Of a DNA stretch of 64,000 bases, positions 4,064 to 27,997 are shown in pieces. Within the stretch, counting starts at the first letter, position 1. Every line of letters starts with the position of its first letter. Source of the DNA: a virus; IMG/VR virus record IMGVR_UViG_3300046779_001123, positions 9,972 through 73,971 of that record. One strand, given 5' to 3'. The notes under the pieces were generated by a model. The model saw only the letters and a list, made by a program, of their open reading frames with translations, searched no databases and had not been told where the DNA came from. The translations under genes were made by a program, and so were the position numbers.

Positions 4064-4329
4064 TTAAATGGTTTAAAAGAAAAATTCTTCACTGGGCGTG
4101 GGATATAGACGAGGAGCCCATTGAAGTAGGTCGCAATGGTCGATGCCTTGAATCAGATTACATTCGTATCGACATCTATCGCGGCGAAGGCGGTCTTGCT
4201 GTAGAAACGCTGATCTACAACAAGAAAAAAGATATAAATCACATCGGCTTTCACATTGTCCACGACGACGAAGAACTCGGCAATAGACTTAGTAAAATTA
4301 TCACAGCAGAAAGTATCAAATCACTATGA
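4060..4329 (+). CDS. Hypothetical protein
   Basis: ATGA start/stop overlap with the upstream ORF. Confidence 0.35.
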   Translation: MIKWFKRKILHWAWDIDEEPIEVGRNGRCLESDYIRIDIYRGEGGLAVETLIYNKKKDINHIGFHIVHDDEELGNRLSKIITAESIKSL

Positions 4330-4769
4330 CACAATCAGAACGAGAACAAATTGAACGAATTAAAGAAAAAGCAGAACGCAAGATCTGGGTCACATTCCGC
4401 AAAGAAGGAATTCACAAATACCCTGCCGCAGCTACTGATCCGCTACTGGCGACCGGCGATGAATACGATGTTAGTTTTCTTGGTGTGCCTCACCGCCATA
4501 TATTCCATTTTCGAGTCTGGATCGATGTATTCCACAACGACCGAGATGTTGAGTTCATCCAATTTAAGCGATGGCTTGAAAATCTTTACAGAGACGGAAC
4601 TCTCCAACTCGACTTCAAGTCATGCGAAATGATGAGCGACGATTTGTATGTAAAGATTGCAGAACGCTATCCCAATCGCGCTGTATGGATCGAAGTGGCC
4701 GAAGACGGAGAAAACGGCGCACTGATCAAATACGAACTTTCTTATCCTGCACAATCAATTACAGTATAA
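4326..4769 (+). CDS. Hypothetical protein
   Basis: Tightly packed ORF; no assignable motif (contains His-rich VPHRHIFHF). Confidence 0.4.
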   Translation: MTQSEREQIERIKEKAERKIWVTFRKEGIHKYPAAATDPLLATGDEYDVSFLGVPHRHIFHFRVWIDVFHNDRDVEFIQFKRWLENLYRDGTLQLDFKSCEMMSDDLYVKIAERYPNRAVWIEVAEDGENGALIKYELSYPAQSITV

Positions 4770-5365
4770 TGACTGCACTTGTTATTGCCTATCCGCCGTC
4801 GGGTGGAGGCAATCATCTTAAAAACATTCTGTGCCTTGACTCAAGTTTTGGTAACAGCAGTGATCTCAACGTTGAAGTTTACACTCGCGGTGAAAGAGAA
4901 GTTCATTCCACACCTGGAAGAAATGTGTCCGCTGAACGAGTAATAGCCGCTGCCAATGATCCGCATCATGAACACATTATCCATGGGCACTTCGGCGAGT
5001 TGGCTACCCAGCGAGATCAAATCAACGCTATCGTAGACAAGAAGTTTGTTGTTATAACTATTGCCACTCCACGAGATAGATACTTGCTCAATATTCGTCA
5101 GAATAGACTAGGGCAAATGAGTCACGAATATTACTTAAACGAAGAACAACTTTACCTTTATCAACCGTATTTTTACCAAACTTACTTTACAGGGTTGCCG
5201 CAAAACATTTATACTATAGCATTAAATGACTTCTGGCATCCCGATTTAAACGAATATAAAATTGTTCAACAACTCAACACTTTTCTAAATAAGAACGTTG
5301 ATCAAGAACAAGCACAGTTTTTACATAACCATTGGCACAAAAACAATCAAATTGATTTTTATTGA
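4769..5365 (+). CDS. Hypothetical protein
   Basis: Start trimmed to the ATG overlapping the upstream stop (TAATG); ORF track 4622..5365. Confidence 0.4.
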   Translation: MTALVIAYPPSGGGNHLKNILCLDSSFGNSSDLNVEVYTRGEREVHSTPGRNVSAERVIAAANDPHHEHIIHGHFGELATQRDQINAIVDKKFVVITIATPRDRYLLNIRQNRLGQMSHEYYLNEEQLYLYQPYFYQTYFTGLPQNIYTIALNDFWHPDLNEYKIVQQLNTFLNKNVDQEQAQFLHNHWHKNNQIDFY

Positions 5366-5600: not shown

Positions 5601-6056
5601 ATGGGTGCCGCAAGAGAACCCGACCAGGCGGACTTTGACTTAGACCGCTTTGTTGATATGTTTGACGAAGCGATGACAAGCCAGGATCCGCGTGTGGTTG
5701 AAACATTACGCAAGTTAATGATGATTGTGACATTGACACGACCAGAGACACACAACGAGCAAGGTCGTAGATCTGGACCGTTGAGAAGATTGTTCGAGGA
5801 CATGAACGATCTAAATAGAGCTATGAATCGCATGCAGGAGGAACTTCACATTATCTCTAACGAAGTTCGTCGTAGTTCACAACCATATCGCTGGGAAGCC
5901 GAAGACAAGTATACCTTGGCGGCGTCAGCAAAAATGGCCTCTCAGATCGATCATGATGTGTTGAATCAACTGAGACAACAACAAATTCAAGCCGCCAAAG
6001 TAATCAACGGTGGCTTGAACTTGGGTCCAGAGACTAAAGCAAAAGGACTTAAATGA
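5601..6056 (+). CDS. Hypothetical protein
   Basis: 151-aa ORF in the operon. Confidence 0.4.
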   Translation: MGAAREPDQADFDLDRFVDMFDEAMTSQDPRVVETLRKLMMIVTLTRPETHNEQGRRSGPLRRLFEDMNDLNRAMNRMQEELHIISNEVRRSSQPYRWEAEDKYTLAASAKMASQIDHDVLNQLRQQQIQAAKVINGGLNLGPETKAKGLK

Positions 6057-7243
6057 GAAAACTATACTACATGGGCTTGGAAAGCTATGAAGCCCGTTAC
6101 ACACTACAACTAACAGAATGGAACCGTCGTGTGTTTGAGCGCCGCGGTCTAGACGTTGTTTATGTTCCTGGCACTACAATTGACAACACACAAGCTATCT
6201 CCGTAGGGCAAGTGTTGGACGCACACGGTCGCAGTTATTTTGCCATGAGCCAAATGATGAACTTGGTTCAAATGATGAAGAACGGCGAAGTCACAGAGTC
6301 CGACGTTATTTACTTTGAAGACATGTTCCAGCCCGGCTTCGAAAGTCTTGGTTATATCATGAATCAAATTCCGCCAGGACATTGCCCACGTATCTATGTG
6401 CGTTGTTTGGCACAGGCCATTGACCCCGATGACTTTGTGCATGTGTGGGGCTTGCAGAAGTGGATGAATTTATATGAGCATATGGTCAATGAAATGGTGG
6501 CGTTCTCTGGTGGAGCCGTTCTGGCAACCAACGAGGAAATGGTGGCTCACATGCGGATTGCTGGCTGGACTGCTCCGATCTACAACATTTCCGGCCTGGC
6601 ATTTGGCAAATCAGAAGTTCTTGAGCGACTGGGCGGCAAAGAAAACATCCGTCCGTTTAATCAGCGTACCAGGAGGGTGGGTTTCGCAGCAAGATTCGAC
6701 CAAGAAAAGCAACCTGGCTTTTACATGGACCTTGCTGAAGAGTATCAAAAGAGATATCCTGGCACAGAGTTCGCTATATTTCAGGGTGGTCCGCTACGCT
6801 CCAACAATCAAGCGTATGTTGACAGAGCAAGAAATCTCGAGGCTAGCGGCAAGATTAAAATCTACGAGAATCTAAGCAAAAATGATTACTATAATCTACT
6901 CAATGATACTTGCGTTCTATTTAACTGTGCTTTACAAGACTGGGTTTCGAACACTGTGTCGGAAGCAGATAGTCTTGGTTGTAATGTGCTGTATCCTGCT
7001 TATCGGAGTTTCCCAGAAACTTTTGCCAATGATCCAGAACGCTTATACATCCCCTGGAGCCAGGATGATGCAATTCGTAAACTAGAAATGTTAATGACAG
7101 GACTGCACCCAAATGCTGGCAAGATTAGTGACTGGAACGATGGATGTGTTGACCGCATTGTTGATATTATTACTGGCATGGGCAGTCAATGGGATCGGTC
7201 GGGCAACCGTTATCGTGATCACGTTGCTGGGGCAAAATACTAA
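6053..7243 (+). CDS. Putative glycosyltransferase (GT-B-like)
   Basis: ~396 aa, N-terminus MRKLYYMGLE weakly resembles phage alpha-glucosyltransferase; C-terminal KIKIYENLS...CNVLYP resembles GT-B C-domain; weak. Confidence 0.35.
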   Translation: MRKLYYMGLESYEARYTLQLTEWNRRVFERRGLDVVYVPGTTIDNTQAISVGQVLDAHGRSYFAMSQMMNLVQMMKNGEVTESDVIYFEDMFQPGFESLGYIMNQIPPGHCPRIYVRCLAQAIDPDDFVHVWGLQKWMNLYEHMVNEMVAFSGGAVLATNEEMVAHMRIAGWTAPIYNISGLAFGKSEVLERLGGKENIRPFNQRTRRVGFAARFDQEKQPGFYMDLAEEYQKRYPGTEFAIFQGGPLRSNNQAYVDRARNLEASGKIKIYENLSKNDYYNLLNDTCVLFNCALQDWVSNTVSEADSLGCNVLYPAYRSFPETFANDPERLYIPWSQDDAIRKLEMLMTGLHPNAGKISDWNDGCVDRIVDIITGMGSQWDRSGNRYRDHVAGAKY

Positions 7244-8191
7244 ATGTCAACTGTAATTGTCACCGGCTCAGCTGGATACATTGGCGGACAAACTGCCCTG
7301 TTGTTAAAAGACGCAGGGCACGAAGTCTATGGCATTGACCGTAGAGAACCGCCACGGCATCTAGCAGGTGTTGTAGATGGGTTCTTGTATCAAGATTTTG
7401 CCAGTGATGTGGCATTAAGCTGGATTATACAAAAACAACCCACGGCTATCGTTCACTGTGCCGGCACCAGTCTCGTTGGCCCTAGTGTTGAGAACCCTGC
7501 AGAGTATTACAACAACAATGTAGTTAAGACACTGAAGTTGTTGGATATTGTTCGCAAGAGTTTGCCAAGAACAAGAATTATTTTTAGTTCTAGTGCTGCA
7601 ACTTACGGCGAGCCTGTAATGACTCCCATTGACGAATCATTCCCTGAATTGCCTGTAAGTCCTTACGGCGAAAGCAAGTATATAATTGACATGATGTTGC
7701 AATCGTACCATAAGGCCTATGGGTTGGACTATGTGTCATTCCGCTACTTCAATGCTTGTGGTGCCGATCCTAAAGGTAGGCATGGTCAAGAGCCTGGCGC
7801 CACACATTTAATTGCTCGCTTCTTAGAAGCAGCAAGAGATCAAGGAACGTTTAAAGTTTATGGAGTTGATTATCCTACTAGTGATGGTACTTGTGTTCGC
7901 GATTACGTGCATGTGGATGATATCGCCCGAGCCCACGCTTTGGCAATCTATCACAAAGTCCCTGCGGGCGTCTACAACCTTGGATCAAATCAAGGACACA
8001 CGGTCAAACAAGTAATAGAACGTGCAATGGCTATCACCGGCAAGCGGCCCGAGATTCAGTTTGGTGCTGCACGACCCGGCGATCCTGCTAAGTTAACAGC
8101 CACCGCAGCTAAGTTTGATTTGTTAGCAGGCGCTTGGAGACATTATACATTGGATGACATGATCCAACATGCATGGAACTGGTATGTTTGA
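7244..8191 (+). CDS. galE: UDP-glucose 4-epimerase / NAD-dependent epimerase-dehydratase
   Basis: VTGSAGYIGG Rossmann motif, YGESK catalytic YxxxK, RYFN. Confidence 0.85.
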   Translation: MSTVIVTGSAGYIGGQTALLLKDAGHEVYGIDRREPPRHLAGVVDGFLYQDFASDVALSWIIQKQPTAIVHCAGTSLVGPSVENPAEYYNNNVVKTLKLLDIVRKSLPRTRIIFSSSAATYGEPVMTPIDESFPELPVSPYGESKYIIDMMLQSYHKAYGLDYVSFRYFNACGADPKGRHGQEPGATHLIARFLEAARDQGTFKVYGVDYPTSDGTCVRDYVHVDDIARAHALAIYHKVPAGVYNLGSNQGHTVKQVIERAMAITGKRPEIQFGAARPGDPAKLTATAAKFDLLAGAWRHYTLDDMIQHAWNWYV

Positions 8192-8789
8192 AAAAATTAA
8201 AGAATTTGAAACAAAGCTCGCAGAGTTTACTGGATCTCCGTATGCAATTATGACTGATTGTTGCACACACGCTATTGAAATGTGTTTGCGATATGACCAA
8301 ATTACAGATTGCTCTTTTACACCTTACACCTATTTGAGCATTCCTATGACTATGCACAAGTTAGGAATTGAGTATAGCTATTTTCCAGATCATTTGCCGC
8401 ACAGGCAACAATGGACAGGTGAATACAAATTTGAAGGTACACGTATTTGGGACTCTGCTCGTAGATTAGAACGCAACATGTATCGCCCTGGTCAGATGCA
8501 ATGTTTGAGTTTTGGACATACTAAGCCTTTACATATCGGCCATGGTGGTGCTATACTGTTGGATGACAAGCGGGCGTATGATGACATAATTCGTATGCGA
8601 TACGACGGTCGCGATCTAAATATATCGCCCTGGGCAGAACAAAAGGTATTTTATGTTGGATACCATTACAAACCAAGCATTGAAGATGCTATTCAAGGCA
8701 TAGCATTGTTGGTCGGGCTTGAGGAGTATTGCCCTGAACCTAAATTTGTTCAATATCCAGATCTAAGACAAATCATTATTAAGGACTAA
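8184..8789 (+). CDS. Shortened DegT/DnrJ/EryC1-family PLP-dependent sugar aminotransferase-like protein
   Basis: FETKLAEFTGSPYAIMT and SFGHTKPLHIGHGGAIL match DegT blocks including the PLP lysine; only ~200 aa against ~370 expected. Confidence 0.45.
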   Translation: MFEKIKEFETKLAEFTGSPYAIMTDCCTHAIEMCLRYDQITDCSFTPYTYLSIPMTMHKLGIEYSYFPDHLPHRQQWTGEYKFEGTRIWDSARRLERNMYRPGQMQCLSFGHTKPLHIGHGGAILLDDKRAYDDIIRMRYDGRDLNISPWAEQKVFYVGYHYKPSIEDAIQGIALLVGLEEYCPEPKFVQYPDLRQIIIKD

Positions 8790-8790
8790 A

Positions 8791-9492
8791 ATGACAGACA
8801 ACAGTTTGAATCTATCACAAGCAATTCGCAATCAAATGAAATCACAAGGCAAGCGTTTCTGGGCCGGCGACAACATCAGCGACTATGTTGATGAAGAACA
8901 AAAACAAGTTCTAATCAACGAAGCAACCGTGGCGTTTGAGCAGGTTTTAGATGCACTATTAATCGACAGAGAAAATGATCCAAACTCTAAAGGCACAGCA
9001 AGACGACTTGCAAAAATGTATTTCAATGAAATCATGGCTGGCAGGTATGAGGAGAGCCCTTCAGCAACGGCGTTTCCTAATGACACAGAAGGAGCATATG
9101 AAGGTATGCTGGTGGTGCGTTCGGAGCTTAAAAGCATGTGTAGCCACCATCACCAACCTGTTACGGGTGTGGCTTATATTGGAATCATTGCTGGTCCCAA
9201 ACTCATTGGCCTATCAAAATACACTCGCATTGCGCAATGGTGTGCCCGTCGAGGAACGTTACAGGAAGAGCTGTGTATGGATATCGCTAGAGAAATTGAA
9301 ACAGCAACTGGATCCAAAGACGTTGCAGTTTATATCCAAGCTACCCACGGATGCTGTGAGAATCGTGGTATTATGGCACACTCTAGTCTTACACAAACCA
9401 CAGTTCTACACGGTGCATTTAAAACAGATGCAGGCGTGAAAAAAGAGTTTTTTGACAACATCAAACTGCAACAGGACTTTGCGCCGCGCTAA
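8791..9492 (+). CDS. folE: GTP cyclohydrolase I
   Basis: SMCSHHH, GLSKYTRIAQWCARR, QEELCMDIA, ATHGCCENRG match FolE blocks. Confidence 0.8.
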   Translation: MTDNSLNLSQAIRNQMKSQGKRFWAGDNISDYVDEEQKQVLINEATVAFEQVLDALLIDRENDPNSKGTARRLAKMYFNEIMAGRYEESPSATAFPNDTEGAYEGMLVVRSELKSMCSHHHQPVTGVAYIGIIAGPKLIGLSKYTRIAQWCARRGTLQEELCMDIAREIETATGSKDVAVYIQATHGCCENRGIMAHSSLTQTTVLHGAFKTDAGVKKEFFDNIKLQQDFAPR

Positions 9493-9521
9493 TTGACCAA
9501 TAAATTCCAATCTGCTATAAT
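9493..9521 (+). promoter_or_regulatory. Sigma70-like promoter (TTGACC-17-TATAAT) of the conserved extended family
   Basis: TTGACCAATAAATTCCAATCTGCTATAAT. Confidence 0.55.
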
Positions 9522-9527
9522 AGGTGC

Positions 9528-10763
9528 ATGAACAAAATTCTTGCACCTATTTTTCTGTGTACTTTAGTATTAACCGGCTGCGGCGGCGGCGGAACGTCTA
9601 TTGCTGGCGGCGGAACGAGCACTACTATTACTTCCGCAACAAATACAATGAATGCAGTAGTTCGAACTACCTCTACTGCACTAAATCTAGTTAACACATT
9701 AGCAGTAGGTGATCTAAACAACGACGGTCTAGACGATGTAGTCATAGGTGGGTGGGTCAACGATGGCACTCACACAGCACGAATTTATGTGTTTTATCAA
9801 AATAGCAATGGCACATTGACAGAAAAAACCACAGAAGTATTGACATCAAATACTTACAGCGGCAGTCAGCATGTGTTTATAAAAGACTTTGACGGTGATG
9901 GGCGCAATGATATTTTCCTTCCGGCATTCGACGATGGCGTTGGCCAACCCGTAGCCAACAGTGTGTTCTTTTGGAACAACTCTGGACAGTTTGTTCGCCA
10001 AGATCTAACAGATCAAGTCTACGCCCACGGTGCTTGCTACAACGATATTGATCGTGATGGCGATATTGACATATTGGTCAGTGGCGCCAACGGCGGTTTA
10101 TATGTCAACAACGGAAACAGAAATTTCTCAATTCAGACCGCAGTATTGCCCAACGACTTCTTTGCCACTTGCAGTGTAATTCACAATTCTAACAATACAA
10201 TTTCTATTATCATGGGCCAAAGCGGGTTGGTTGCAGGATTTAAATCATCTATCCTAACTATAGATCGAAATTTCAATGTTGTTTCTAATGTAGGTGTTGT
10301 TGCTCCTACCAATAATGGTGTAGAATTTGATTTGATCAACAGTCGTGCCATGGATGTCAATAATGACGGCAACACAGATTTTGTTGCAGTGTTCAACGAC
10401 ATGGCACCTGGGGTTCCTGGGGCCAAGCAAGTATTGCTGGGAGACGGGCAAGGCAACTTTGTAGCACAGCCGGCATTTGATACACAATATAACAATGCCT
10501 ATTATTCACACACAATTTTCACTGCAGGGCATATCACTGTGTTGTTTGGTGCCGACAACGGGCATACAAAACTTTATCAAATCATCAACGGTGTATGGAC
10601 GTTATACAAACAAGATGTGTTAGACTCGATGGCTGCGTCTGTTGGTGCTAGTGCAGGAAATTGGAATATCGGGCATGGCACAGTTTACCAAAACACTGTT
10701 AATGGCCGTGTATATGTGCTACAATATCTAGCAGGAAAATATTATACAAAAGAACTCATATGA
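9528..10763 (+). CDS. Lipoprotein with FG-GAP/VCBS-like Ca-binding repeats
   Basis: Signal peptide + LTGC lipobox; repeated DxNxDGxxD motifs (DLNNDGLDD, DFDGDGRND, DIDRDGDID, DVNNDGNTD). Confidence 0.6.
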   Translation: MNKILAPIFLCTLVLTGCGGGGTSIAGGGTSTTITSATNTMNAVVRTTSTALNLVNTLAVGDLNNDGLDDVVIGGWVNDGTHTARIYVFYQNSNGTLTEKTTEVLTSNTYSGSQHVFIKDFDGDGRNDIFLPAFDDGVGQPVANSVFFWNNSGQFVRQDLTDQVYAHGACYNDIDRDGDIDILVSGANGGLYVNNGNRNFSIQTAVLPNDFFATCSVIHNSNNTISIIMGQSGLVAGFKSSILTIDRNFNVVSNVGVVAPTNNGVEFDLINSRAMDVNNDGNTDFVAVFNDMAPGVPGAKQVLLGDGQGNFVAQPAFDTQYNNAYYSHTIFTAGHITVLFGADNGHTKLYQIINGVWTLYKQDVLDSMAASVGASAGNWNIGHGTVYQNTVNGRVYVLQYLAGKYYTKELI

Positions 10764-11161
10764 AATATCAAACATTAGAAACAGCAGCCAAGGCAGGCGT
10801 AGCACCTTGGGATCTAAAAGTCAAAGAACTCAGCGACTTTCATGTTGCAGTGTTTCAAGATCGATTTCCTGTAGCTAAAGGGCATCTACTATTTGTGCCT
10901 GTGTATAACACCGGTGCTATGATCGAAGACTGTTTCAACTCGGCATACTATCATGGCACACGAATGGTAGAATCCGGCGAGTGGGAAGCATTCAACATTG
11001 GATTCAACTGTGGCGCGGCTGCTGGTCAAACAGTGATGTATCCACATATACACTTAATTCCTCGCAAGACTGGAGATTGCGCCAATCCCACTGGTGGTGT
11101 TCGTGGTGTTATTCATGGCCAAGCCGATTACAAAAGTGGCGGTTACCAACTGCCAGCATAA
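10760..11161 (+). CDS. HIT-family (histidine triad) nucleotide hydrolase/transferase
   Basis: HIHLIPR histidine triad; GHLLFVP. Confidence 0.7.
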   Translation: MKYQTLETAAKAGVAPWDLKVKELSDFHVAVFQDRFPVAKGHLLFVPVYNTGAMIEDCFNSAYYHGTRMVESGEWEAFNIGFNCGAAAGQTVMYPHIHLIPRKTGDCANPTGGVRGVIHGQADYKSGGYQLPA

Positions 11162-11241
11162 GTATTTCTTTAAGCGGCCTGTCCGGCATCATCCCGCTAT
11201 ACAAACTCTGCTGCCTATGCTATAATACATAGGAGGACAAT

Positions 11242-11745
11242 ATGGCAAATCAACCCCGACAATATCAATACACTAGCACCAAAGAGTATCACGATGCGTT
11301 TCCCTGCGCTTATCGTCAATGGCGTGCGGACAGCCACTGCAATCTAATTCATGGCTACAGTTTTTCAATGAAGTTCTACTTCGGCACAGACAATCTAGAC
11401 GTGCGAAACTGGGCAGCTGACTACGGCGGACTCAAAGAACTGAAGAAGACATTGGAAGATCAATTTGATCACACCTTGCTGGTGGCACAAGATGATCCAG
11501 AATTGGAAACATACAAACTGTTACAAGAAAAGAAGTTGGCCAAACTCACAGTCCTGCCTAGATTAGGTTGCGAAGGTTTAGCAGACATGCTATACAAGTA
11601 TGTCAACGGTGTTTACATTCCTGACATGTGGGGACCGGGCGAAGCCGAACGTTTGTGGTGCTATCGCGTGGAGGTGCGCGAAACCCAGTCGAATATGGCT
11701 TTCCGTGAAGGTCACCGTGAATGGAATGAAGATTTGTTTGCTTAA
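11242..11745 (+). CDS. queD: 6-carboxy-5,6,7,8-tetrahydropterin synthase (PTPS family)
   Basis: CNLIHGYSF (Cx3HG motif), FDHTLL ~ LDHHYL; extended -10 TGCTATAAT upstream. Confidence 0.7.
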   Translation: MANQPRQYQYTSTKEYHDAFPCAYRQWRADSHCNLIHGYSFSMKFYFGTDNLDVRNWAADYGGLKELKKTLEDQFDHTLLVAQDDPELETYKLLQEKKLAKLTVLPRLGCEGLADMLYKYVNGVYIPDMWGPGEAERLWCYRVEVRETQSNMAFREGHREWNEDLFA

Positions 11746-11766
11746 AAAATAAGCACTTCAAAATAT

Positions 11767-11792
11767 GCCCTGTTTTTACAGGGCATGATCAT
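11767..11792 (+). terminator. Hairpin terminator after queD
   Basis: GCCCTG-TTTTTA-CAGGGC followed by a T-rich run. Confidence 0.5.
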
Positions 11793-11811
11793 TTTATAGA
11801 TACATAACGAT

Positions 11812-12642
11812 ATGAAATATAGCATTGCAGTTTTACTACCAACAAGAGGACGCACTGGCGCACTGAGCCGTAGCGTGATGAGCTTGATCAACCGAGCTGT
11901 TAAATTAGAGCGAGTCCAGCTACTGCTTGGGTTCGACGATGATGACACAGAAGGAATTGAGCACTTTCAAAATGAGTTAGAGCCTTGGCTTATTGAGAAA
12001 AAAGTCAATTATGACGCCCAAGTGTTTCCTCGCATGGGCTATGCTCGTTTAAATGAATATGTTAATGCTCTTGCTCAAGCCAGCGATGCAGATTGGTTAA
12101 TGTTCTGGAACGATGACGCCATGATGGACACTGCTGGATGGGACAAGCAAATTGCTGATCACACCGGCGAATTCAAATGCTTGGCAGTGCATACACATCG
12201 AGATCATCCATATAGTATTTTTCCCATTGTTCCTAGAGAATGGCTAGATGCACTAGGATATCTCAGCCCACATCAAATTTCAGATGCATGGCTAAGCCAA
12301 CAAGCATATCTACTAGATATATTTGAAAGAATTCCTGTATGGGTTACACATGATCGTCACGATCTTACTGGCAATAACAATGACGACACTTACAAAAATC
12401 GTGTGATGTATGAAGGCAATCCCAACAGCCCCAAAGACTTCCATCACATCAGTTGGCATCTCCGTAGAATGGAAGATGTTGAAAAACTTGCCAGCTATAT
12501 GCAATCACAGAATCTCAGCACCGAATGGTGGGAAAATGTTAAATTAAAAAAACAAGATCCATGGGCAAAATTACAAGAAAATGATGTCAATGGTCAATGT
12601 AAACAATTTCAACTTCCAGTAAATCAAATGGGTGGAGTATGA
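11812..12642 (+). CDS. GT-A fold (GT2-like) glycosyltransferase
   Basis: SIAVLLPTRGR N-terminus and DDDD (DxD) motif. Confidence 0.5.
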   Translation: MKYSIAVLLPTRGRTGALSRSVMSLINRAVKLERVQLLLGFDDDDTEGIEHFQNELEPWLIEKKVNYDAQVFPRMGYARLNEYVNALAQASDADWLMFWNDDAMMDTAGWDKQIADHTGEFKCLAVHTHRDHPYSIFPIVPREWLDALGYLSPHQISDAWLSQQAYLLDIFERIPVWVTHDRHDLTGNNNDDTYKNRVMYEGNPNSPKDFHHISWHLRRMEDVEKLASYMQSQNLSTEWWENVKLKKQDPWAKLQENDVNGQCKQFQLPVNQMGGV

Positions 12643-13418
12643 GCGAGACCTTAGAAGAGCGTATCAAAAGATATTGGAATGCACAGCCATGCAACATCAA
12701 GCATGGCACTGCTGATTTTGGCACACCTGAATTCTTTCAACAAATTAGCGAGCGTCGATATAAAGTAGAACCTCATATTGCGGAGTTTGCTGGATTCCAT
12801 TTATGGCAAGGCAAACGTGTGTTAGAAGTAGGTTGCGGAATTGCCAGTGATGGCGAAGAGTTTGCCAAACATGGTGCCGAATATGTGGGTATTGACTATA
12901 GTGACCAAAGCGTGGAAATTGCCCGCAAGCGTTTTGAAGTGCATGGTCTCGAGGGCGAGTTCCATAACATTGATGCCAGTGACAGTAACGCAACCGCTAA
13001 TTTGGGCAAGTTTGATCTTGTTTACAGCTACGGTGTTATTCATCACTTTCCTGCAATTGATACTATTATCAATAACATTCATTCCTTGCTCAAACCCGGT
13101 GGTGAATTCCGCTTCATGGTATATGCCAAAAACTCTTGGAAACAGGCAATGATCTACAAAGGGCTGGATCAATACGAGGCACAAGCAGGGTGTCCGTATG
13201 CCAAGAGTTTCTCCAAAGAAGAAATCCCCGAATTACTGGGGCCTGGCTGGCATGTGGAACGAGTGAGACAAGATCATTGTTTTATGTATAACGTAGAAGC
13301 CTATAAACAAGGGCAATATGAGTTAGAACCTTGGTTTGCTGCTATGCCGGACGCAATGCGCGAAGCTGTGCGTGAATATCTAGGCTGGCATTTACTAGTT
13401 AAGGCGAAGAAGGTTTGA
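12639..13418 (+). CDS. Class I SAM-dependent methyltransferase
   Basis: VLEVGCGIASDG motif I, LKPGG post-motif. Confidence 0.75.
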   Translation: MSETLEERIKRYWNAQPCNIKHGTADFGTPEFFQQISERRYKVEPHIAEFAGFHLWQGKRVLEVGCGIASDGEEFAKHGAEYVGIDYSDQSVEIARKRFEVHGLEGEFHNIDASDSNATANLGKFDLVYSYGVIHHFPAIDTIINNIHSLLKPGGEFRFMVYAKNSWKQAMIYKGLDQYEAQAGCPYAKSFSKEEIPELLGPGWHVERVRQDHCFMYNVEAYKQGQYELEPWFAAMPDAMREAVREYLGWHLLVKAKKV

Positions 13419-14365
13419 AAAAAATAGTTTATATCACAGGGTGTCTTGGGTTCATGGGTGTTCATGTAACACGTGAGCTACTTGCCCGAGGCTGGTATGT
13501 CATAGGTGTGGACAAATGCACTTATGCCAGCAATGAAAACTTCTTAAATGAATTTAACAAGTATAAAACTTTTAAGTTCATTAAGTCCGACATCAATGAT
13601 TTAGATCGTTTACATGATTGTGATTATGTTATCAACATGGCAGCAGAAACACATGTTGATAATTCTATCATGAGCAGTGGTGTATTTTTACACAGTAATG
13701 TCAACGGGGTGCATCACCTGCTGGAATTGATCAAACAGCAACCCCGACACAAACAACCTGTGCTGTTGCATTTTAGCACAGACGAAGTCTATGGCGACAT
13801 CAACTCGGGTGCTCACACAGAAACTGATTTGCTAAAGCCCAGCAATCCGTATTCAGCCAGCAAGGCTGCTGCTGATATGTTAATCACTGCTTGGGCAAGA
13901 ACATATGGTATGAAGTATATCATTGTGCGTCCTACTAACAACTACGGCACAGGGCAGTATGTTGAAAAACTCATACCCAAGTCTATAAAGTATCTCACAC
14001 TAGGCAAAAAGATCGATTTGCATGATCGCGGCGAACCTGTGCGAACTTGGCTTCATGCCACTGATACTGCTGTTGCTGTTGCAACAATTATCAATTCGGG
14101 CGTGACCAACGAAATATACAACATTTCGGGCAATGCAGAAATGCCTAACCGAGAAGTTATCAAGAAGATACTGACTCTTTATCAAGGTTCCGATGCCGCG
14201 GCGAATTGGGAAGATTATATCTTTGATAGCAATCGAGTCGGGCAAGATGTTCGCTATGCAATTGATGACTCAAAACTCAAGGCTTTGGGATGGTATCCGC
14301 TTGCAGACTTTGACACGGCACTGGCAGATATAGTAAAATATTACATTGAAAATTTTGTATGGTAA
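13415..14365 (+). CDS. NDP-glucose 4,6-dehydratase (RfbB-like, extended SDR)
   Basis: ITGCLGFMG, STDEVYG, YSASKAAAD (YxxxK). Confidence 0.8.
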   Translation: MKKIVYITGCLGFMGVHVTRELLARGWYVIGVDKCTYASNENFLNEFNKYKTFKFIKSDINDLDRLHDCDYVINMAAETHVDNSIMSSGVFLHSNVNGVHHLLELIKQQPRHKQPVLLHFSTDEVYGDINSGAHTETDLLKPSNPYSASKAAADMLITAWARTYGMKYIIVRPTNNYGTGQYVEKLIPKSIKYLTLGKKIDLHDRGEPVRTWLHATDTAVAVATIINSGVTNEIYNISGNAEMPNREVIKKILTLYQGSDAAANWEDYIFDSNRVGQDVRYAIDDSKLKALGWYPLADFDTALADIVKYYIENFVW

Positions 14366-15081
14366 AAAACTATCTAGTGTGTGCTGTTCGTCCTATTGAG
14401 GATGGCTGGCACCTTGAAAAAAATCACGATCTGTATGCACAATACAGACAAATGTATGACCTGCGATTAGCAAGTTTCCGCAAGTTTGTTGAGGAACCAT
14501 TTGAAGCCGTTCTGTGGACTGATCCGGTTAAAAACAATGATGAGTATACCATTGCAAACTGGAACGCGATCAAGGAATTATGGCATAGCGAGCCGTGCAA
14601 TATCTTCTGGGCCGGGGCTGACACAATCATGACACAGCCTACAAGTTTGTTCAGCGATAGATTCAAAGAATATCGCATGTTCAACTACACTGACCCAAGG
14701 TCACACAGAGAATTTGCGCATTACTTCAACGACGATATTCAATACTATCCTCATACTATGAGCAAGGAGACGTGGGACTTAGGCGAGGAATTGTGGTCTC
14801 AACGCGAAGGTCATCCAGATCAGTTTTGGGGATTTGATCAGAATAGACACAACACAATGTTTTGGAGTCAAGACATCCCAGACAACGATCGATTCCATCC
14901 CCATCTAGCATACCAGGCAATGCAACTTAGAGAGCTAACACAACAAGTAATAGATAAGCATAATGCGTGGAATGGCTTGGACATACGTCAAGCACACATT
15001 ATACATTTTCATGCCAGTCGTGGCAGTCAACAGGTCATTGATCTCATGCGTTTTATTTCTCAACAACTAGGTATCATTTAA
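14359..15081 (+). CDS. Hypothetical protein in the sugar cluster
   Basis: 240-aa ORF, W/H-rich, no clear motif. Confidence 0.4.
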   Translation: MVKNYLVCAVRPIEDGWHLEKNHDLYAQYRQMYDLRLASFRKFVEEPFEAVLWTDPVKNNDEYTIANWNAIKELWHSEPCNIFWAGADTIMTQPTSLFSDRFKEYRMFNYTDPRSHREFAHYFNDDIQYYPHTMSKETWDLGEELWSQREGHPDQFWGFDQNRHNTMFWSQDIPDNDRFHPHLAYQAMQLRELTQQVIDKHNAWNGLDIRQAHIIHFHASRGSQQVIDLMRFISQQLGII

Positions 15082-16400
15082 TGGAAGAAATTCTCAAATT
15101 AGTGCGAGAGCACATCGAACAAAAACAAGCTAACAAAACTTGGACAGCTGGCGAGGACTTTGTAAACTATGCCGGATCTTATTTTGATGAAAAAGAATTT
15201 GTTGCTGCGGTGGAAAGTTTGCTCAAAGGTTGGCTTGTCATGGGCGACGCTGGCTTGAAGTTTGAGCGTGAGTTTCCGCAATATTTTGGCAAAAGCAAAG
15301 GCATTCTGACAAACTCCGGGTCATCTAGCAACTTGCTGATGATGTCAGCGTTAACATCCAAGCGTGGTTACAACTTGCCTAAAGGCACAAAAGTGTTAAT
15401 GCCTATTGCAGGTTTTCCTACCACACTAAACCCAACATTACAAGTGGGGTTTGAACCTGTGTTTGTGGACATTGAACTAGATACTCTTAATTTAGACTTG
15501 GATCAAGTTGAAATGAGATTGATATCTGATCCTTCTATTCGTGTAATTACATTTGCTCATGTGCTAGGTAATCCCCCAGCAATGGATCGATTGATGGAAT
15601 TAGTCGAGCGGCATGATCTTATTTTGTTAGAAGATTGTTGCGATGCATTGGGCAGCACATATGACGGCAAACCCTTGGGCAGTTATGGCTTGATGGCATC
15701 GTGCAGTTTCTATCCAGCACACCACATGACCATGGGCGAAGGCGGCTATGTTGCCACCAATGACGCAAACACAGATGTTATCTTACGTTCATTCCGTGAA
15801 TGGGGCCGTGGTTGCTATTGCGTAGGCCCAGAGGCCAATAAGTTGAAATGCGGCACTTGTGGCAATAGATTCAACAACTGGATTCCAACCTTGCCCAATG
15901 AAATATTTGATCACAAATACGTCTATGACGAAATTGGCTACAACATGAAGCCCATTGAAGTTCAATGTGCCATGGGCTTGGAGCAGTTGAAAAAGTTGCC
16001 TGAAATTCATGCCTTGCGTCGACGCAACTATCAATTACTATTTGACATTTACAAAGACTATGAAGAATTCTTCTACTTACCAAGAGCGACTGCAAAGTCT
16101 GACCCTAGTTGGTTTGCTTTCCCACTCACCATACGCCCGGGTGCTCCCTTTACTAGGAATGACATTGTGGATTACCTCGAAGAAAATCTCATTCAAACTC
16201 GTCCTTATTTTGCTGGCAATATTATGTTGCAGCCTGCTTATAGCCATTTGATGGATCCGCAGAAAGCCAAGGACAATTTCCCCAACGCAACACACGCAAT
16301 GACACACACTTACTTCCATGGAACAAGTCCAGTCATTACACCCGAACAAATTGAATATATTGGTTCAGTGGTTCGCGGTTTCTTAAGTTTATATCGATAA
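15081..16400 (+). CDS. DegT-family PMP-dependent NDP-4-keto-6-deoxyhexose 3-dehydrase (E1/RfbH/ColD-like)
   Basis: SFYPAHHMTMGEGG with His replacing the PLP Lys, as in E1/ColD; 439 aa. Confidence 0.7.
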   Translation: MEEILKLVREHIEQKQANKTWTAGEDFVNYAGSYFDEKEFVAAVESLLKGWLVMGDAGLKFEREFPQYFGKSKGILTNSGSSSNLLMMSALTSKRGYNLPKGTKVLMPIAGFPTTLNPTLQVGFEPVFVDIELDTLNLDLDQVEMRLISDPSIRVITFAHVLGNPPAMDRLMELVERHDLILLEDCCDALGSTYDGKPLGSYGLMASCSFYPAHHMTMGEGGYVATNDANTDVILRSFREWGRGCYCVGPEANKLKCGTCGNRFNNWIPTLPNEIFDHKYVYDEIGYNMKPIEVQCAMGLEQLKKLPEIHALRRRNYQLLFDIYKDYEEFFYLPRATAKSDPSWFAFPLTIRPGAPFTRNDIVDYLEENLIQTRPYFAGNIMLQPAYSHLMDPQKAKDNFPNATHAMTHTYFHGTSPVITPEQIEYIGSVVRGFLSLYR

Positions 16401-16410
16401 GGAGACAGCC

Positions 16411-18171
16411 ATGAAGGGTAGTCAATACGTAGCAAAGTTTTTAAAGGCCGTTGGTGCCAACAAAGTTTTCCAAGTGCAAGGTGGTGCAATCACATTTATG
16501 GTTGATCAAATTGCCCTAGAAGAAGGCATGGAAGTCGTTTGCTTCCAGCACGAGCAAGCCGCTGCAATGGCAGCAGATGCACTGTGGCGCACAAATGGAC
16601 AACTAGGTGTGTCAATGGCAACGTCTGGTCCTGGTGCATCAAACTTGATCACCGGTATTGCTTGTGGCTATTACGATAGTATTCCTAGCTTGCACATCAC
16701 AGGGCAAGTAAACTATGAAGAACAAAAACTCTATCGTGGTGCTGCTGTTCGCCAAGCTGGTTTTCAACAAATGGACATTGTCTCTATGGTCAAGCCTGTT
16801 TGCAAATATGCTGTGAACGTCACAACACACGATGACATGCGCCAAGAACTTAAACGTTGTGTGGAAGAAGCATACTCGGGCCGCATGGGTCCTGTGCTGA
16901 TTGACATTCCCATGAACTTGCAAAACGCCGAAATGGAAGATAGCACAATGTTGTTGCCTGATTCTTCAAAATGGAGTGCCGTTGACACTGGTATTCTTCC
17001 CGAGGGAGTTGGCAGCGCAATTCAACACTTCTTAGGCAGTGCCAAGCGACCACTTATTATATTCGGCGCAGGTGTTGGCCTTGCAGGTAAGCAAGCAGAA
17101 CTTGAGCGTTGGTTAGGCTCTAATAAGATTCCGTTTGTTGCTACTTGGGCTGCATTAAATTACTTTAGTCACGAAGCACCTACCTACATCGGACACTTTG
17201 GTGTGTATGGCAATCGCGGCGGTAACAATGCTATTCAAAACGCAGACCGCATTCTTGTGCTAGGTTCTCGCTTAGACAACCGCCAGCGGTCAGGAAACCC
17301 TGCTAACTTTGCACCTAATGCTAAAATCTTGTGTATTGATATTGACCCAGCTGAGTTAGAAAAACTAGATCCAGCGAACTATCGCGGCATCGAATTCGAC
17401 TTGCGTAATCTTGACAAAGCATTGCGTGGTGTAGAGAAGCCCAAGTTTGATCCAGAATGGGGTAAGTATTGCCAAAGTCTCAAGGCAAAGTATTTTAACA
17501 AAGATACTAGTTCATACAGCCAACAACACGATGTTATGAGTCCGTATGCAGTGGTAGAAAAGCTACAGCAAGTAGCTGAGTCTGATGCTGTTATCACAAC
17601 AGATGCAGGTGCTAACCACTGCTGGGTTTACCAGTCATTCTATCGCAATCAAGATCAACTGTTAATGACCAGCTCGGGTCACTATGCCATGGGTTATGCA
17701 TTGCCTGCATCAATTGGTGCTGCATTGGTTGCACCTACTCGTCAGCACATTTGCTCCAATGGCGATGGTGGCATTCAAATGAACTTGCAAGAGCTGCAAA
17801 CTGTCAAAGAGTATGATTTGGATATCAAAGTTGTTGTGTTCAACAATCGTCGATTGGGAATGATTTGTCAGTTCCAAGACACTTATATGGATGGCCGTCA
17901 TGCTGCTACAGAGAATGGCCCCGGTCGTCCCGACTTTAGAAAGATTGCTGAAGCATTTGATTTTGATTATGTGTTGATTACTTCGTTAGATCAAATCAGT
18001 GCCGAGACACTAAAGCCCGGTCGTAGAATTATCGAAATCAAGATCCATCCTGGCGTGCAAATTGAACCTAAACTAGAAAAAGGTCGTCCTATTAATGATC
18101 AATCACCGTTGGTCAGCGACGAAGAGTTTGCTACTGGTAATCCATATTATACCTACGAGAGAATTCGTTGA
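16411..18171 (+). CDS. ThDP-dependent acetolactate-synthase-like enzyme (YerE-like branched-sugar synthase candidate)
   Basis: 586 aa; GDGGIQMNLQELQT ThDP-binding GDG-x24-N motif; AGGAGA RBS. Confidence 0.75.
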   Translation: MKGSQYVAKFLKAVGANKVFQVQGGAITFMVDQIALEEGMEVVCFQHEQAAAMAADALWRTNGQLGVSMATSGPGASNLITGIACGYYDSIPSLHITGQVNYEEQKLYRGAAVRQAGFQQMDIVSMVKPVCKYAVNVTTHDDMRQELKRCVEEAYSGRMGPVLIDIPMNLQNAEMEDSTMLLPDSSKWSAVDTGILPEGVGSAIQHFLGSAKRPLIIFGAGVGLAGKQAELERWLGSNKIPFVATWAALNYFSHEAPTYIGHFGVYGNRGGNNAIQNADRILVLGSRLDNRQRSGNPANFAPNAKILCIDIDPAELEKLDPANYRGIEFDLRNLDKALRGVEKPKFDPEWGKYCQSLKAKYFNKDTSSYSQQHDVMSPYAVVEKLQQVAESDAVITTDAGANHCWVYQSFYRNQDQLLMTSSGHYAMGYALPASIGAALVAPTRQHICSNGDGGIQMNLQELQTVKEYDLDIKVVVFNNRRLGMICQFQDTYMDGRHAATENGPGRPDFRKIAEAFDFDYVLITSLDQISAETLKPGRRIIEIKIHPGVQIEPKLEKGRPINDQSPLVSDEEFATGNPYYTYERIR

Positions 18172-18980
18172 AAGTATTGATCACAGGAGCCGGGGGATTC
18201 CTTGGCTCGTATCTTAGTAAACATCTTCCACATGAAGTTGTTGCGCTGACCCGACAACAACTGGACTTGTCGGATACACTGGCAACATACAATCATTTTC
18301 AAAACAACAGATACGACGCAGTAATTCATTGCGGTGCTGCCGGGCGCAACACTCCATTGGCCGAAGATTGGAACATAGTTAACAATAATTTACAGTCGGT
18401 TATGAATCTCATGATCAACAATCGTGAATTTGACAAACTGATCAATATTGGCACCGGTGCCGAATTTGATGTTGGCCGCGATATCGACTGTGTTAGCGAA
18501 AATGAAATATTCAATCGTATGCCGCCACAAAGTTATGGAATGAGTAAAAATCTCATAGCCAGATATTTGCGTGGCCACCCCATGTGCTACAATCTGCGAC
18601 TGTTTGGTTGTTTTGATTCGTCAGAAGATCCGGCTAGACTTCTCAAAAAATTTCATTCAACTGTGTCCCAGGGCAAGAAGTTCAGCATTACGGACAGGGA
18701 ATTTGACATGATCAGTGCCACGGATTTTGCCGTTGTTGTCAATGCTGTGCTCAATGGAGCCATAAATTATCGCGATATCAACTGCGTTTATGCCAAAAAG
18801 TATAGACTAAGCGAAATATTGAGTGTATACTGTGACAAACATGGACTAGATAAATCCTTGATTGAAATCAACGGGCAAGGATTGAATTATACCGGCAATG
18901 GTGATACGCTGTCTAAATACAACCTCAATCTACTTGGATTGGAACAATCATTAGCAAACTATGAAATTAAAAATCAGTGA
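18168..18980 (+). CDS. NAD(P)-dependent epimerase/reductase (short SDR)
   Basis: MKVLITGAGGFLGSYL Rossmann motif. Confidence 0.6.
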   Translation: MKVLITGAGGFLGSYLSKHLPHEVVALTRQQLDLSDTLATYNHFQNNRYDAVIHCGAAGRNTPLAEDWNIVNNNLQSVMNLMINNREFDKLINIGTGAEFDVGRDIDCVSENEIFNRMPPQSYGMSKNLIARYLRGHPMCYNLRLFGCFDSSEDPARLLKKFHSTVSQGKKFSITDREFDMISATDFAVVVNAVLNGAINYRDINCVYAKKYRLSEILSVYCDKHGLDKSLIEINGQGLNYTGNGDTLSKYNLNLLGLEQSLANYEIKNQ

Positions 18981-19818
18981 ACTCTTTTACTCTGCTCAAG
19001 GTGAAGGCCGTTTTGTTGGCGTTCCTTCAGTGTTCTTACGCACATTCGGATGCAATTTCACATGTTCTGGATTTGGCTGCAAGCCAGGCGAGAAGAGCAC
19101 AGAGGCGGACGAAGTTGCGAAGAATATCCATCTCTATAAGGATTTTACTAGCCTCCCGCTGGTTAATACTGGATGTGATTCCTACGCATCATGGCACCCT
19201 GCATTTAAGGATCTTAGCCCGACTATCGAAACCGCAGAGTTAGTCGATCAAATGCTAGCACTAACACCCAATCATCGTTGGGTGCAGGACAATGGCAACG
19301 ACGTGCATTTGGTGATCACCGGAGGCGAACCATTGCTGGGTTGGCAACGTGCATACACAGAACTCTTAAGTCACGAACGCATGGCAGACCTGCGTAATAT
19401 TACATTTGAAACAAATGGCACTCAAACGCTACAAGGAAAGTTCATCGACTACTTGCTGGATTGGAGTGAAATTGCTGGAAATGAAATTACATTCTCAGTA
19501 AGTCCTAAACTAAGTGCATCAGGCGAGAAGTGGGAAGAAGCAATTCGTCCTGAGATTGTTCGCATGTATCAAGACTATGGCTTTACATATTTGAAGTTTG
19601 TTGTAGAAACAGAACAACACTTTGAAGAAGTAGACAAGGCTGTTGGTCAATATCGTGCTGTTGGATTTAATGGTCCAGTATTTGTAATGCCACAAGGTGG
19701 TGTTGTCACTCCTTATGCACAGAATCGTGTTCGAGTAGCAGACTGGGCACTAAGCAAAGGATACAATTACAGTCCACGTTTACACGTTGACCTGTGGGGC
19801 AATGGTTGGGGAAAATAA
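18961..19818 (+). CDS. queE: 7-carboxy-7-deazaguanine synthase-like radical SAM enzyme
   Basis: SAQGEGRFVGVPSVFLRTFGCNFTCSGFGC resembles the QueE N-terminal Cys cluster. Confidence 0.6.
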   Translation: MKLKISELFYSAQGEGRFVGVPSVFLRTFGCNFTCSGFGCKPGEKSTEADEVAKNIHLYKDFTSLPLVNTGCDSYASWHPAFKDLSPTIETAELVDQMLALTPNHRWVQDNGNDVHLVITGGEPLLGWQRAYTELLSHERMADLRNITFETNGTQTLQGKFIDYLLDWSEIAGNEITFSVSPKLSASGEKWEEAIRPEIVRMYQDYGFTYLKFVVETEQHFEEVDKAVGQYRAVGFNGPVFVMPQGGVVTPYAQNRVRVADWALSKGYNYSPRLHVDLWGNGWGK

Positions 19819-25496: not shown

Positions 25497-25541
25497 CCAT
25501 TTTCCACGGTTAGAGATAAATACTCTAACCAGGAGAATATT

Positions 25542-26269: not shown

Positions 26270-26270
26270 T

Positions 26271-27975: not shown

Positions 27976-27997
27976 ATTATTTTCTTGGCCATTTTTC

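Follow-up and report, generated by a model that had tools for sequence, protein, structure and literature searches.

A possible glycosylated 7-deazaguanine module with a branched-sugar cassette in a large uncultured phage

Introduction

To our knowledge, the 7-deazaguanines described in phage DNA are all simple derivatives, and hydroxymethyl-pyrimidines are the only bases there known to carry sugars. Whether the two chemistries may meet in one genome is a question raised by a 64-kb stretch of a large uncultured phage (IMG/VR record IMGVR_UViG_3300046779_001123, positions 9,972 to 73,971; this whole stretch is called the window in the following, and coordinates are counted from its first nucleotide). 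An earlier reading, made from the letters of this DNA and hereafter called the sequence-only reading, had pointed to a block in which genes for a deoxy, possibly branched, sugar alternate with genes for deazaguanine synthesis, and had suggested that the sugar might be attached to the deazaguanine or to another DNA base.

We report here a computational analysis of this block, centred on the deazaguanine genes, on a glycosyltransferase gene (GT1) embedded among them and on a branched-sugar cassette. As judged from sequence, the phage may carry in its DNA a glycosylated 7-deazaguanine with a variable glycan, an explanation that we favour as quite possible, if short of probable. More doubtful is the fuller version of this proposal, in which G would be replaced by glycosylated 7-deazaguanine, GT1, the partner of DpdL and DpdA in phages PA5oct, ACP17, BUDD/X1, BCSR5, Phosso and BUCT-ZZ01, would be the founding transferase, and the glycan, differing between related phages, would here include a yersiniose-like branched hexose.

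The deazaguanine core

The module under study occupies approximately 0.6–20.6 kb of the window, within a region (position 22 to about 24.5 kb) where the long open reading frames (ORFs) are nearly all on the + strand and densely packed. All the module genes are on the + strand, their stops and starts mostly overlapping or abutting, and folE, queD and queE are interleaved with sugar genes, just as the sequence-only reading had described. Relatives were taken as the best 80 of 598 IMG/VR stretches matching the DpdA-like protein (81–93% identity; individual loci are cited by an L number), and protein-coding genes without a family name are designated by u and their start in the window (u628, u3548, u5362, u14359). 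The gene order in these 80 loci is u628-DpdA-u3548-DpdL-u5362-GT1-GalE-short DegT-FolE-HIT-QueD-GT2p-(MT)-QueE, where GT2p is a second glycosyltransferase candidate and MT a methyltransferase. A megablast search of the block for near matches in INPHARED (50,697 phage records) gave none, and a distant blastn search gave only short matches, to Pseudomonas jumbo phage PA5oct, Acidovorax phage ACP17 and a Limnohabitans phage.

The deazaguanine genes are the following:

2011–3567, + strand: candidate for a DpdA-like DNA-guanine transglycosylase, divergent and TGT-like, of the PA5oct/ACP17 type (TGT motifs, profile matches, gene context)
4326–4769, + strand: DpdL, QueD-like T-fold protein, proposed 7-carboxy-7-deazaguanine decarboxylase (LxxxHRHxF signature)
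8791–9492, + strand: FolE, GTP cyclohydrolase I (PF01227, E 1.4e-39)
11242–11745, + strand: QueD/PTPS, 6-carboxy-tetrahydropterin synthase (PF01242, E 4e-16)
18961–19818, + strand: QueE, 7-carboxy-7-deazaguanine synthase (phrog_2076, E 4.7e-53; TIGR QueE models, E ~1e-10)

The assignment of DpdL is based on the sequence LGVPHRHIF in ORF 4326–4769, which fits exactly the DpdL signature LxxxHRHxF that replaces the CxxxHGH of QueD (Cui, Hutinet et al., NAR 2023, PMC10516641). In tblastn searches, this protein matched phages phiST, phi13:1 and phi19:2 (E 2e-9), ACP17 (56%) and PA5oct (57%). Neither QueC (searched with Pfam in the block and by tblastn in the whole window) nor QueF or a phosphoribosyltransferase was found in the 64 kb of the window, the remaining genome lying outside it. 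The presence of DpdL together with the lack of QueC, neither of which the sequence-only reading had noted, predicts a 7-deazaguanine pathway of the phiST type; in phiST, a FolE/QueD/QueE/DpdL/DpdA3 core replaces 100% of G with 2'-deoxy-7-deazaguanine (dDG) (PMC10516641). The two systems share FolE, QueD, QueE, the DpdL signature, the lack of QueC and an adjacent transglycosylase, in the window a putative one, of the TGT superfamily. They differ in that the transglycosylase candidate of the window is not recognisable as DpdA3 by BLAST and belongs instead to the PA5oct/ACP17 branch, and in that the window has an embedded GT4-type transferase and nucleotide-sugar enzymes, of which phiST has none.

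The transglycosylase requires some comment. The sequence-only reading had counted a dpdA among the genes of 6053–18980; a candidate does exist, but it is a divergent TGT-like protein encoded upstream, at 2011–3567. This ORF had no match in Pfam, in PHROGs or by phmmer against PDB sequences, and the TGT family PF01702 was matched in Pfam neither by its product nor by any of 57 homologues. Nonetheless, the protein contains GDSGGFQ and ISFDCASP, the two catalytic-aspartate motifs expected of TGTs, and D101, S102, G104 and D299 are invariant in the 57 homologues. An hhalign comparison with E. coli Tgt and the annotated DpdA of Xanthomonas phage BUDD gave a probability of 79% (E 1.5e-5), and all 32 PDB matches of the family profile are TGTs, at weak scores (E ~0.7–1); one homologue, L179_410, has a faint TGT match of its own. 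The family is large, with 974 representatives after clustering at 50%, and its members recur in fitting contexts: the PA5oct homologue lies inside the deazaguanine cluster, 3 kb from QueE, and that of Vibrio phage 2.275.O adjoins QueF, a YhhQ-like transporter and FolE. The family profile also matches (E 1e-8) a 424-aa protein of ACP17 in the DpdA position, which from its gene position would be the ACP17 dpdA of the earlier study (PMC10516641). Taken together, these data make 2011–3567 a candidate for a DpdA-like function, which we accept in spite of the missing Pfam TGT match. As for the chemistry in this branch, PA5oct DNA resists restriction enzymes with G-containing sites (PMC12191111).

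A glycosyltransferase conserved beside the deazaguanine genes

The first glycosyltransferase gene of the block follows DpdL and u5362:

6053–7243, + strand: GT1, GT-B/GT4-like glycosyltransferase (GT-B fold, Glycos_transf_1 C-terminal domain)

A phmmer search of GT1 against PDB sequences gave nothing useful. GT1 is present in every window-family locus that reaches far enough (38/38), and the same neighbourhood is found in other phages. T4-like cyanophage BUCT-ZZ01 has a GT1 that is 64% identical, in the order QueE-PRT-x-QueD-FolE-x-x-DpdL-GT1 (PRT, phosphoribosyltransferase), in a cluster where no DpdA was recognised. In phage BUDD, GT1 is 25% identical and the order is FolE-PAPSreductase-like-x-x-GT1-DpdA-DpdL-QueE. 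More distant homologues were recovered by hhalign in PA5oct (99.7%; DpdA-like-GT1-DpdL) and in ACP17 (99.8%; DpdA-GT1-DpdL-QueE), whereas hidden Markov model (HMM) matches located GT1 in Phosso, where DpdL is followed by a gene annotated as a glycosyltransferase, and near DpdL in BCSR5. The position of the ACP17 glycosyltransferase gene (ASD50404.1) between dpdA and dpdL offers a possible reason why dpdA and dpdL of this phage, when used alone, failed to reconstitute dDG (Cui et al., PMC10516641).

In metagenomes, the BUDD-type GT1 had the same neighbourhood in all six contexts inspected (6/6). A full match to the BUDD-type GT1 (35–55% identity with the BUDD protein) was obtained for 34 IMG/VR loci. 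In 33 of these, DpdL lies no more than a few kb away; FolE is present in 25, QueE in 19 and QueD in 18, in several gene orders. As a control, approximately 65 viral loci outside the window family were chosen by the thiamine diphosphate (ThDP) enzyme described below, and none (0) has any deazaguanine gene. The neighbourhood of GT1 with DpdL, DpdA, QueE and FolE is a conserved functional link across several phage lineages, and the gene identities and the synteny behind it are direct observations. Because GT1 is present in many DpdL modules and missing in others, it appears to be an optional add-on to the DpdL-type module, like glucosylation on hydroxymethylcytosine.

Some of these loci have features of their own. 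In the BUDD-type sub-block (L105, L106, L178, L179; BUDD itself, L101, 10380–11953), a small PAPS-reductase-like PP-loop protein is followed by a DpdL domain within a two-domain protein of ~270 aa, by a ~140-aa protein and by GT1; many BUDD-type loci show a tandem pair of DpdL-like matches. The PP-loop protein could activate the carboxylate of 7-carboxy-7-deazaguanine. A phosphoribosyltransferase gene lies beside QueE in BUCT-ZZ01 (L099, 15093–15554) and in some relatives of the window phage (L014, 12561–13094), which suggests a nucleotide-level deazapurine route in some phages.

The branched-sugar cassette

Between MT and QueE, the window contains five genes, of which genes 1, 3, 4 and 5 had been interpreted in the sequence-only reading by the YerE/YerF logic of yersiniose synthesis:

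13415–14365, + strand: cassette gene 1, nucleoside diphosphate (NDP)-glucose 4,6-dehydratase, dTDP type (TIGR01181, 307 bits, below the cutoff of 365)
14359–15081, + strand: cassette gene 2, u14359, 240 aa, 67% identical in the distant cassette of L097
15081–16400, + strand: cassette gene 3, E1/RfbH-type NDP-4-keto-6-deoxyhexose 3-dehydrase dependent on pyridoxamine phosphate (PMP) and [2Fe-2S] (NF011936, 450.7 bits vs a cutoff of 423)
16411–18171, + strand: cassette gene 4, YerE-like ThDP carboligase (PF02776, PF00205 and PF02775, E 1e-28 to 1e-36)
18168–18980, + strand: cassette gene 5, RmlD-like short-chain dehydrogenase/reductase (SDR), candidate YerF-type ketoreductase (PF01370, E 1.3e-14; PF04321, E 1.2e-10)

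The identification of the 3-dehydrase as a DegT-family enzyme with His in place of the Lys that binds pyridoxal phosphate (PLP) stood up well. Besides scoring above the NF011936 cutoff, the protein aligns end to end (residues 2–436) with Yersinia E1 (PDB 3bcx, E 1.6e-99); in SFYPAHHMTMGEGG, the place of the Lys is taken by His, SFYPAHH aligns with the AHH of E1, and the predicted [2Fe-2S] cysteines (CCDALG and CYC...CGTC) align with those of Yersinia E1.

For the ThDP enzyme, the best PDB score was with 5ahk (310 bits), followed by E. coli acetolactate synthase (ALS) I (263), 8rph (246) and plant or yeast ALS (~202). We take 5ahk, the code being unconfirmed, for the YerE homologue from Pseudomonas protegens (Hampel et al. 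2018). Our enzyme has Phe in place of the Trp of ALS, as does 5ahk, the two have a C-terminal tail in common, and all the ALS equivalog cutoffs lie above its scores (e.g. 385 vs 738). Entry 8rph carries the ThDP motif CDG, which has been reported for JanthE, a YerE-like enzyme (PMC12247030), and ErwE and MMAR_2332 are further YerE-like branching systems of the same kind (PMC12247030). A tblastn search of phage records with this enzyme retrieved nothing but ALS genes of host-like type, in records that were contaminated or came from prophages. From its sequence the enzyme appears YerE-like and would add a two-carbon (or longer) branch at C4.

The arrangement of the genes points in the same direction. 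The adjacency of E1 and the ThDP enzyme is kept in every relative, down to ~55% identity, and the SDR gene sits after the ThDP gene in all the cassettes. The conserved E1-ThDP-SDR set and the likeness to 5ahk make yersiniose-like chemistry well supported. As in the pathway to yersiniose A in Yersinia pseudotuberculosis (DdhA-D, YerE, YerF; PMC12247030), a 4,6-dehydratase, an E1 3-dehydrase, a ThDP carboligase and a reductase are united in one cassette. The YerE/YerF interpretation is supported, but the pathway deviates from that of yersiniose: the dehydratase is of the dTDP rather than the CDP type (only 79.8 bits with the CDP-type model), and neither a cytidylyltransferase nor an E3 was found in the ORFs scanned. 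The window cassette is, in addition, viral and has u14359 inside it.

The sulfotransferase-like ORF of the sequence-only reading could not be confirmed. The u14359 protein had no match in Pfam, PHROG, NCBIfam or PDB, its family profile had none in PDB, and a single-sequence AlphaFold2 model was unusable (pLDDT 42). In the cassettes of other viruses the same slot is usually held by a GT34 (PF05637) gene. Comparison of u14359 with these slot-sharing GT34 proteins was not significant by BLASTP and gave 11.7% probability by hhalign, with WAGADT aligned with WTGCDT. By position, u14359 is possibly a glycosyltransferase.

The cassette is an independent mobile module and an accessory insertion. It was found in only 15 IMG/VR loci, as counted by the ThDP enzyme, vs the 598 DpdA-matching stretches; it measures 5.6–7.6 kb, and MT directly abuts QueE in L080 and L044. 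The E1-ThDP-SDR set and the 4,6-dehydratase recur at 55–61% identity in other large-phage contigs, where the neighbours are PolB/UvsX/DnaB genes in L177 and a helicase and an RNaseH-like gene in L097. In giant-virus (GVMAG) contigs, distant ThDP homologues (23–31% identity) were also observed (L136, L138, L141, L149, L159, L164), paired in L136, L138 and L141 with DegT-like and SDR genes, so that acyl-branched sugar chemistry may be present in giant viruses as well.

Other relatives carry different extras at varied points of the module, namely several radical S-adenosylmethionine (SAM) enzymes, a UDP-glucose/GDP-mannose dehydrogenase, an aminotransferase-like protein, another SDR, an AMP-binding enzyme, a Rieske protein and a phosphoribosyltransferase. 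The module locus is a diversification hot spot.

With regard to the suggestion that the sugar is attached to the deazaguanine base, the GT1 neighbourhood conserved across lineages speaks in its favour, whereas the link of the cassette to the base is plausible from the insertion site and positional only.

Other sugar-related genes of the block

The remaining genes with a possible role in the glycan, and one that interrupts them, are:

7244–8191, + strand: GalE, UDP-glucose 4-epimerase (TIGR01179, 289.7 bits vs a cutoff of 262), in 50 relatives
8169–8789, + strand: short DegT-like protein, 206 aa (PF01041, E 1.6e-13, profile positions 163–238)
9528–10763, + strand: FG-GAP lipoprotein (PF13517, E 1.4e-18), in 5 relatives only
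10760–11161, + strand: HIT-family nucleotide hydrolase/transferase (PF01230, E 3.6e-8), in 36 relatives
11812–12642, + strand: GT2p (phrog_14945 glycosyltransferase, E 1.2e-11; DDDD and NDD motifs)
12639–13418, + strand: SAM-dependent methyltransferase, MT (PF08242 and PF13649, E ~1e-20)

Library and fold matches thus bear out GalE, the short DegT, the HIT protein and both glycosyltransferase candidates of the sequence-only reading; of its two SAM methyltransferases, the one at 12639–13418 was recovered and the second was not confirmed within 6053–18980. GalE probably supplies the UDP-hexose donor. The short DegT-like protein, kept in 47 relatives, retains the PLP-lysine motif SF..K..GxGG and had no phmmer match in PDB. 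The HIT protein, a core member of the block, is Hint/Fhit-like, with the last two His of the triad kept. GT2p is conserved at 53–86% in relatives, and its family profile had no match in PDB; a relationship of GT2p with GT34 was considered and rejected, the comparison showing no relation. MT occurs in relatives that carry the cassette as well as in others that lack it. The FG-GAP lipoprotein, which the sequence-only reading did not list, has a signal peptide and an LTGC lipobox, no other segment of the block being clearly hydrophobic and signal-like, and is preceded (9493–9521) by a near-consensus sigma70-type promoter, TTGACC-17-TATAAT with TG. In L042, a 790-aa FG-GAP protein sits at a different spot. 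The gene is probably a variable moron outside the pathway.

A proposed pathway and its precedents

A fixed core with a variable sugar part would be a phage DNA-hypermodification module. In the scheme that we favour, GTP would be converted to 7-carboxy-7-deazaguanine through FolE, QueD and QueE, and DpdL would convert this to 7-deazaguanine, which the DpdA-like transglycosylase would exchange for guanine in the phage DNA. GT1 would then move a hexose from a nucleotide sugar to the deazaguanine, either as the free base before insertion or in the DNA afterwards; GalE points to UDP-Gal or UDP-Glc as the donor. The variable part would comprise GT2p, MT, the short DegT, the HIT protein and, in this subclade, the inserted cassette, with GT2p, possibly u14359, and the tailoring enzymes extending or varying the glycan. 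The cassette itself would turn a host NDP-glucose into a yersiniose-like NDP-3,6-dideoxy-4-C-branched hexose by the successive action of the 4,6-dehydratase, the E1 3-dehydrase (with a host reductase), the YerE-like carboligase and the SDR reductase. We infer here that deazaguanine is the acceptor of GT1, that the product stands in DNA and that the cassette sugar belongs to the same glycan. In favour of a cytoplasmic, nucleic-acid-related role are the soluble glycosyltransferases (no transmembrane segment was predicted in any glycosyltransferase of the block), the FEN/RNaseH and MazG genes that adjoin the module, and the tight gene pairs.

Precedents exist for the single elements of this scheme. 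In T-even phages, alpha- and beta-glucosyltransferases glucosylate hydroxymethylcytosine, and the glycan varies between related phages; here, similarly, a soluble GT-B enzyme encoded among DNA-metabolism genes would decorate a non-canonical base with a host UDP-sugar. Eukaryotic tRNA contains mannosyl- and galactosyl-queuosine, with the sugar on a hydroxyl of the cyclopentenediol side chain. In this case too, a glycosyltransferase acts on a 7-deazaguanine derivative already within a nucleic acid, but the queuosine side chain cannot be made by the genes of the window. The attachment atom has a precedent only in the exocyclic N2, as in huimycin and dapiramicin, where the sugar is on the N2 amino group of a deazapurine; huimycin involves a GT4-type transferase and a SAM methyltransferase, and RmlB/RmlD-type genes have been proposed for dapiramicin (PMC7439116; bioRxiv 10.64898/2026.04.15.718813). 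The combination of 7-deazaguanine core genes with a GT4-type transferase and a SAM methyltransferase is shared with the window. The huimycin and dapiramicin pathways, in contrast, use preQ0 (QueC), lack DpdA and give a free actinomycete metabolite, whereas the window has DpdL and a DpdA-like protein and no QueC.

Several observations weigh against the proposal. Approximately half of the cultured DpdL phage groups, phiST among them, have no GT1 near DpdL, and since phiST makes full dDG in this way, dDG itself does not depend on GT1. The enzyme GT1 is no closer to the T4 DNA glucosyltransferases (PDB 1y6f, 1c3j) than to ordinary GT4 enzymes, and we know of no obvious O- or N-handle at C7 of plain 7-deazaguanine. 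The cassettes of L097, L098, L108–L114, L176 and L177 have no deazaguanine gene within 10 kb. In the ORFs scanned with domain libraries, neither a sugar-1-phosphate nucleotidyltransferase nor a ferredoxin-NAD(P) reductase-type partner of the E3 (DdhD) kind was found; the E1 enzyme would then depend on a host reductase, as SpnQ does. Finally, the block is broken by a terminator-like hairpin just 3' of QueD (11764–11787) and interrupted by the exported FG-GAP lipoprotein gene with its own promoter.

Alternative explanations

Some of these points would fit a division of labour, in which the deazaguanine genes (perhaps with GT1) alone modify the DNA and the remaining sugar genes remodel host lipopolysaccharide (LPS)/O-antigen/capsule or virion proteins. 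The cassette, GalE, GT2p and u14359 would then sit here since the early region tolerates insertions. This would explain the accessory and mobile nature of the cassette, its occurrence elsewhere without deazaguanine genes and the distant ThDP homologues of giant viruses, and LPS is the only place in which YerE-type sugars are known (PMC12247030), a further point against a sugar on DNA. Consistent with this explanation, an E1 homologue of cyanophage S-H68 lies in an LPS-like cluster adjoining tail genes, the block encodes one exported lipoprotein, and the authors who described phage X1 interpret its glycosyltransferases as surface-modifying auxiliary metabolic genes. On the other hand, we found no undecaprenyl phosphate-linked initiating transferase and neither a flippase nor a polymerase or ligase, every glycosyltransferase of the block is predicted to be soluble, and elsewhere cassettes also stand among replication genes (L177, L097). 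GalE, the short DegT, the HIT protein and GT2p are, moreover, kept in the deazaguanine block in most relatives, an argument weakened by the close kinship of these loci. On balance we regard this explanation as unlikely, yet as one that deserves serious consideration.

Much less probable is the synthesis by GT1 and the deazaguanine genes of a free glycosylated 7-deazapurine of the huimycin/dapiramicin kind, acting as an infection inhibitor or a signal. The gene logic (FolE/QueD/QueE with a GT4-type transferase and a SAM methyltransferase, and RmlB/RmlD-like genes as for dapiramicin) is similar, and a phosphoribosyltransferase stands beside QueE in BUCT-ZZ01 and some relatives. However, a DpdA-type transglycosylase adjoins GT1 in most lineages, the genome-mining study takes the absence of dpdA as a criterion for secondary-metabolite pathways, and PA5oct DNA is modified at G.

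We give an equally low probability to the idea that GT1 helps to make or insert the base, for instance by way of a short-lived glycosylated intermediate or by assisting DpdA without any catalysis of its own, so that the final base would be without sugar. The tight, often overlapping GT1-DpdA or DpdA-GT1-DpdL order and the failure of ACP17 dpdA and dpdL alone to give dDG could be understood in this way, but the full replacement by dDG in phiST takes place without GT1, and GalE and the further sugar enzymes beside GT1 in the window family would be needless for a transient or structural role.

That the ThDP enzyme is a true ALS, making branched-chain amino acids during infection, is hardly credible: the NCBIfam models that match it best all bear the name of ALS large subunits and the JGI annotation agrees, but its scores are far under the ALS equivalog cutoffs, it resembles 5ahk more than any ALS in score, in the Phe for Trp replacement and in the common tail, no small regulatory subunit is present, and E1 and the SDR invariably adjoin it.

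Neighbouring genes and the rest of the window

Two genes flank the transglycosylase candidate and one follows QueE:

628–1350, + strand: u628, upstream neighbour of the DpdA-like gene, in 79 of the 80 DpdA-anchored relatives
3548–4063, + strand: u3548, 171 aa, between the DpdA-like gene and DpdL, in 76/80 relatives, with no family match
19794–20615, + strand: NadE-like NAD synthetase (PF02540, E 7.8e-52; phrog_11189, E 2.7e-83)

The homologue of u628 in PA5oct is EST35_0314, annotated as 'structural protein' (35% identity), which also lies directly upstream of the DpdA-like gene. An ORF at 4622–5365 overlaps the end of DpdL by ~150 nt and is present in 4 relatives only; its start, or its reality, is doubtful. 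The NadE-like gene was considered as a substitute for QueC and rejected, as several QueE-bearing relatives lack it and as it lies next to cassettes in other places too. It stands beside the sugar cassette in unrelated phages as well (L097, 5248–6177; L109, ~5330), and several close relatives lack it.

Downstream of the module, two tandem DUF6071 paralogues (21299–22662) are kept in relatives. A 17-kb array of 33 tRNA genes (25425–42054) includes an ARAGORN call (34730–34820) with an undetermined two-base anticodon; directly ahead of it is the gene for a 124-aa RF-1 domain protein (ArfB/peptidyl-tRNA hydrolase-like, 25895–26269), and inside it that for a 632-aa B12-binding radical SAM protein (40088–41986), possibly involved in RNA or tRNA modification. 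Further on are an AAA ATPase gene (53412–54494) with 72% nucleotide identity over 190 bp to a PA5oct ATPase, and genes for a DUF2201 metallopeptidase-VWA protein (59131–60453) and an SPFH/Band-7 protein (61174–62022). A periplasmic solute receptor of the TctC/Bug family, which is expanded in Betaproteobacteria, is encoded at 49316–50233. This receptor and the weak matches to Acidovorax and Limnohabitans phages are hints of a betaproteobacterial host.

Conclusions

In the literature searched, neither a glycosylated 7-deazaguanine in phage DNA nor the spread of a YerE-type cassette in large phages and giant viruses had been reported. If the proposed modification is real, no sugar-bearing purine analogue in DNA would have been described before it. 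It would have consequences for the range of restriction enzymes, type IV nucleases and DNA glycosylases to which such genomes are visible, and the affected genomes would include those of PA5oct-like phages, which have been studied as therapeutic candidates. New enzymes for site-specific DNA glycosylation would become available, and phages would be seen to mobilise branched-sugar (YerE-type) chemistry. Despite many rearrangements, GT1 has stayed with DpdL/DpdA in phages cultured on Pseudomonas, Acidovorax, Xanthomonas, Burkholderia, Sinorhizobium and Synechococcus, a lead that can be tested directly and that points to a possible new class of DNA bases.

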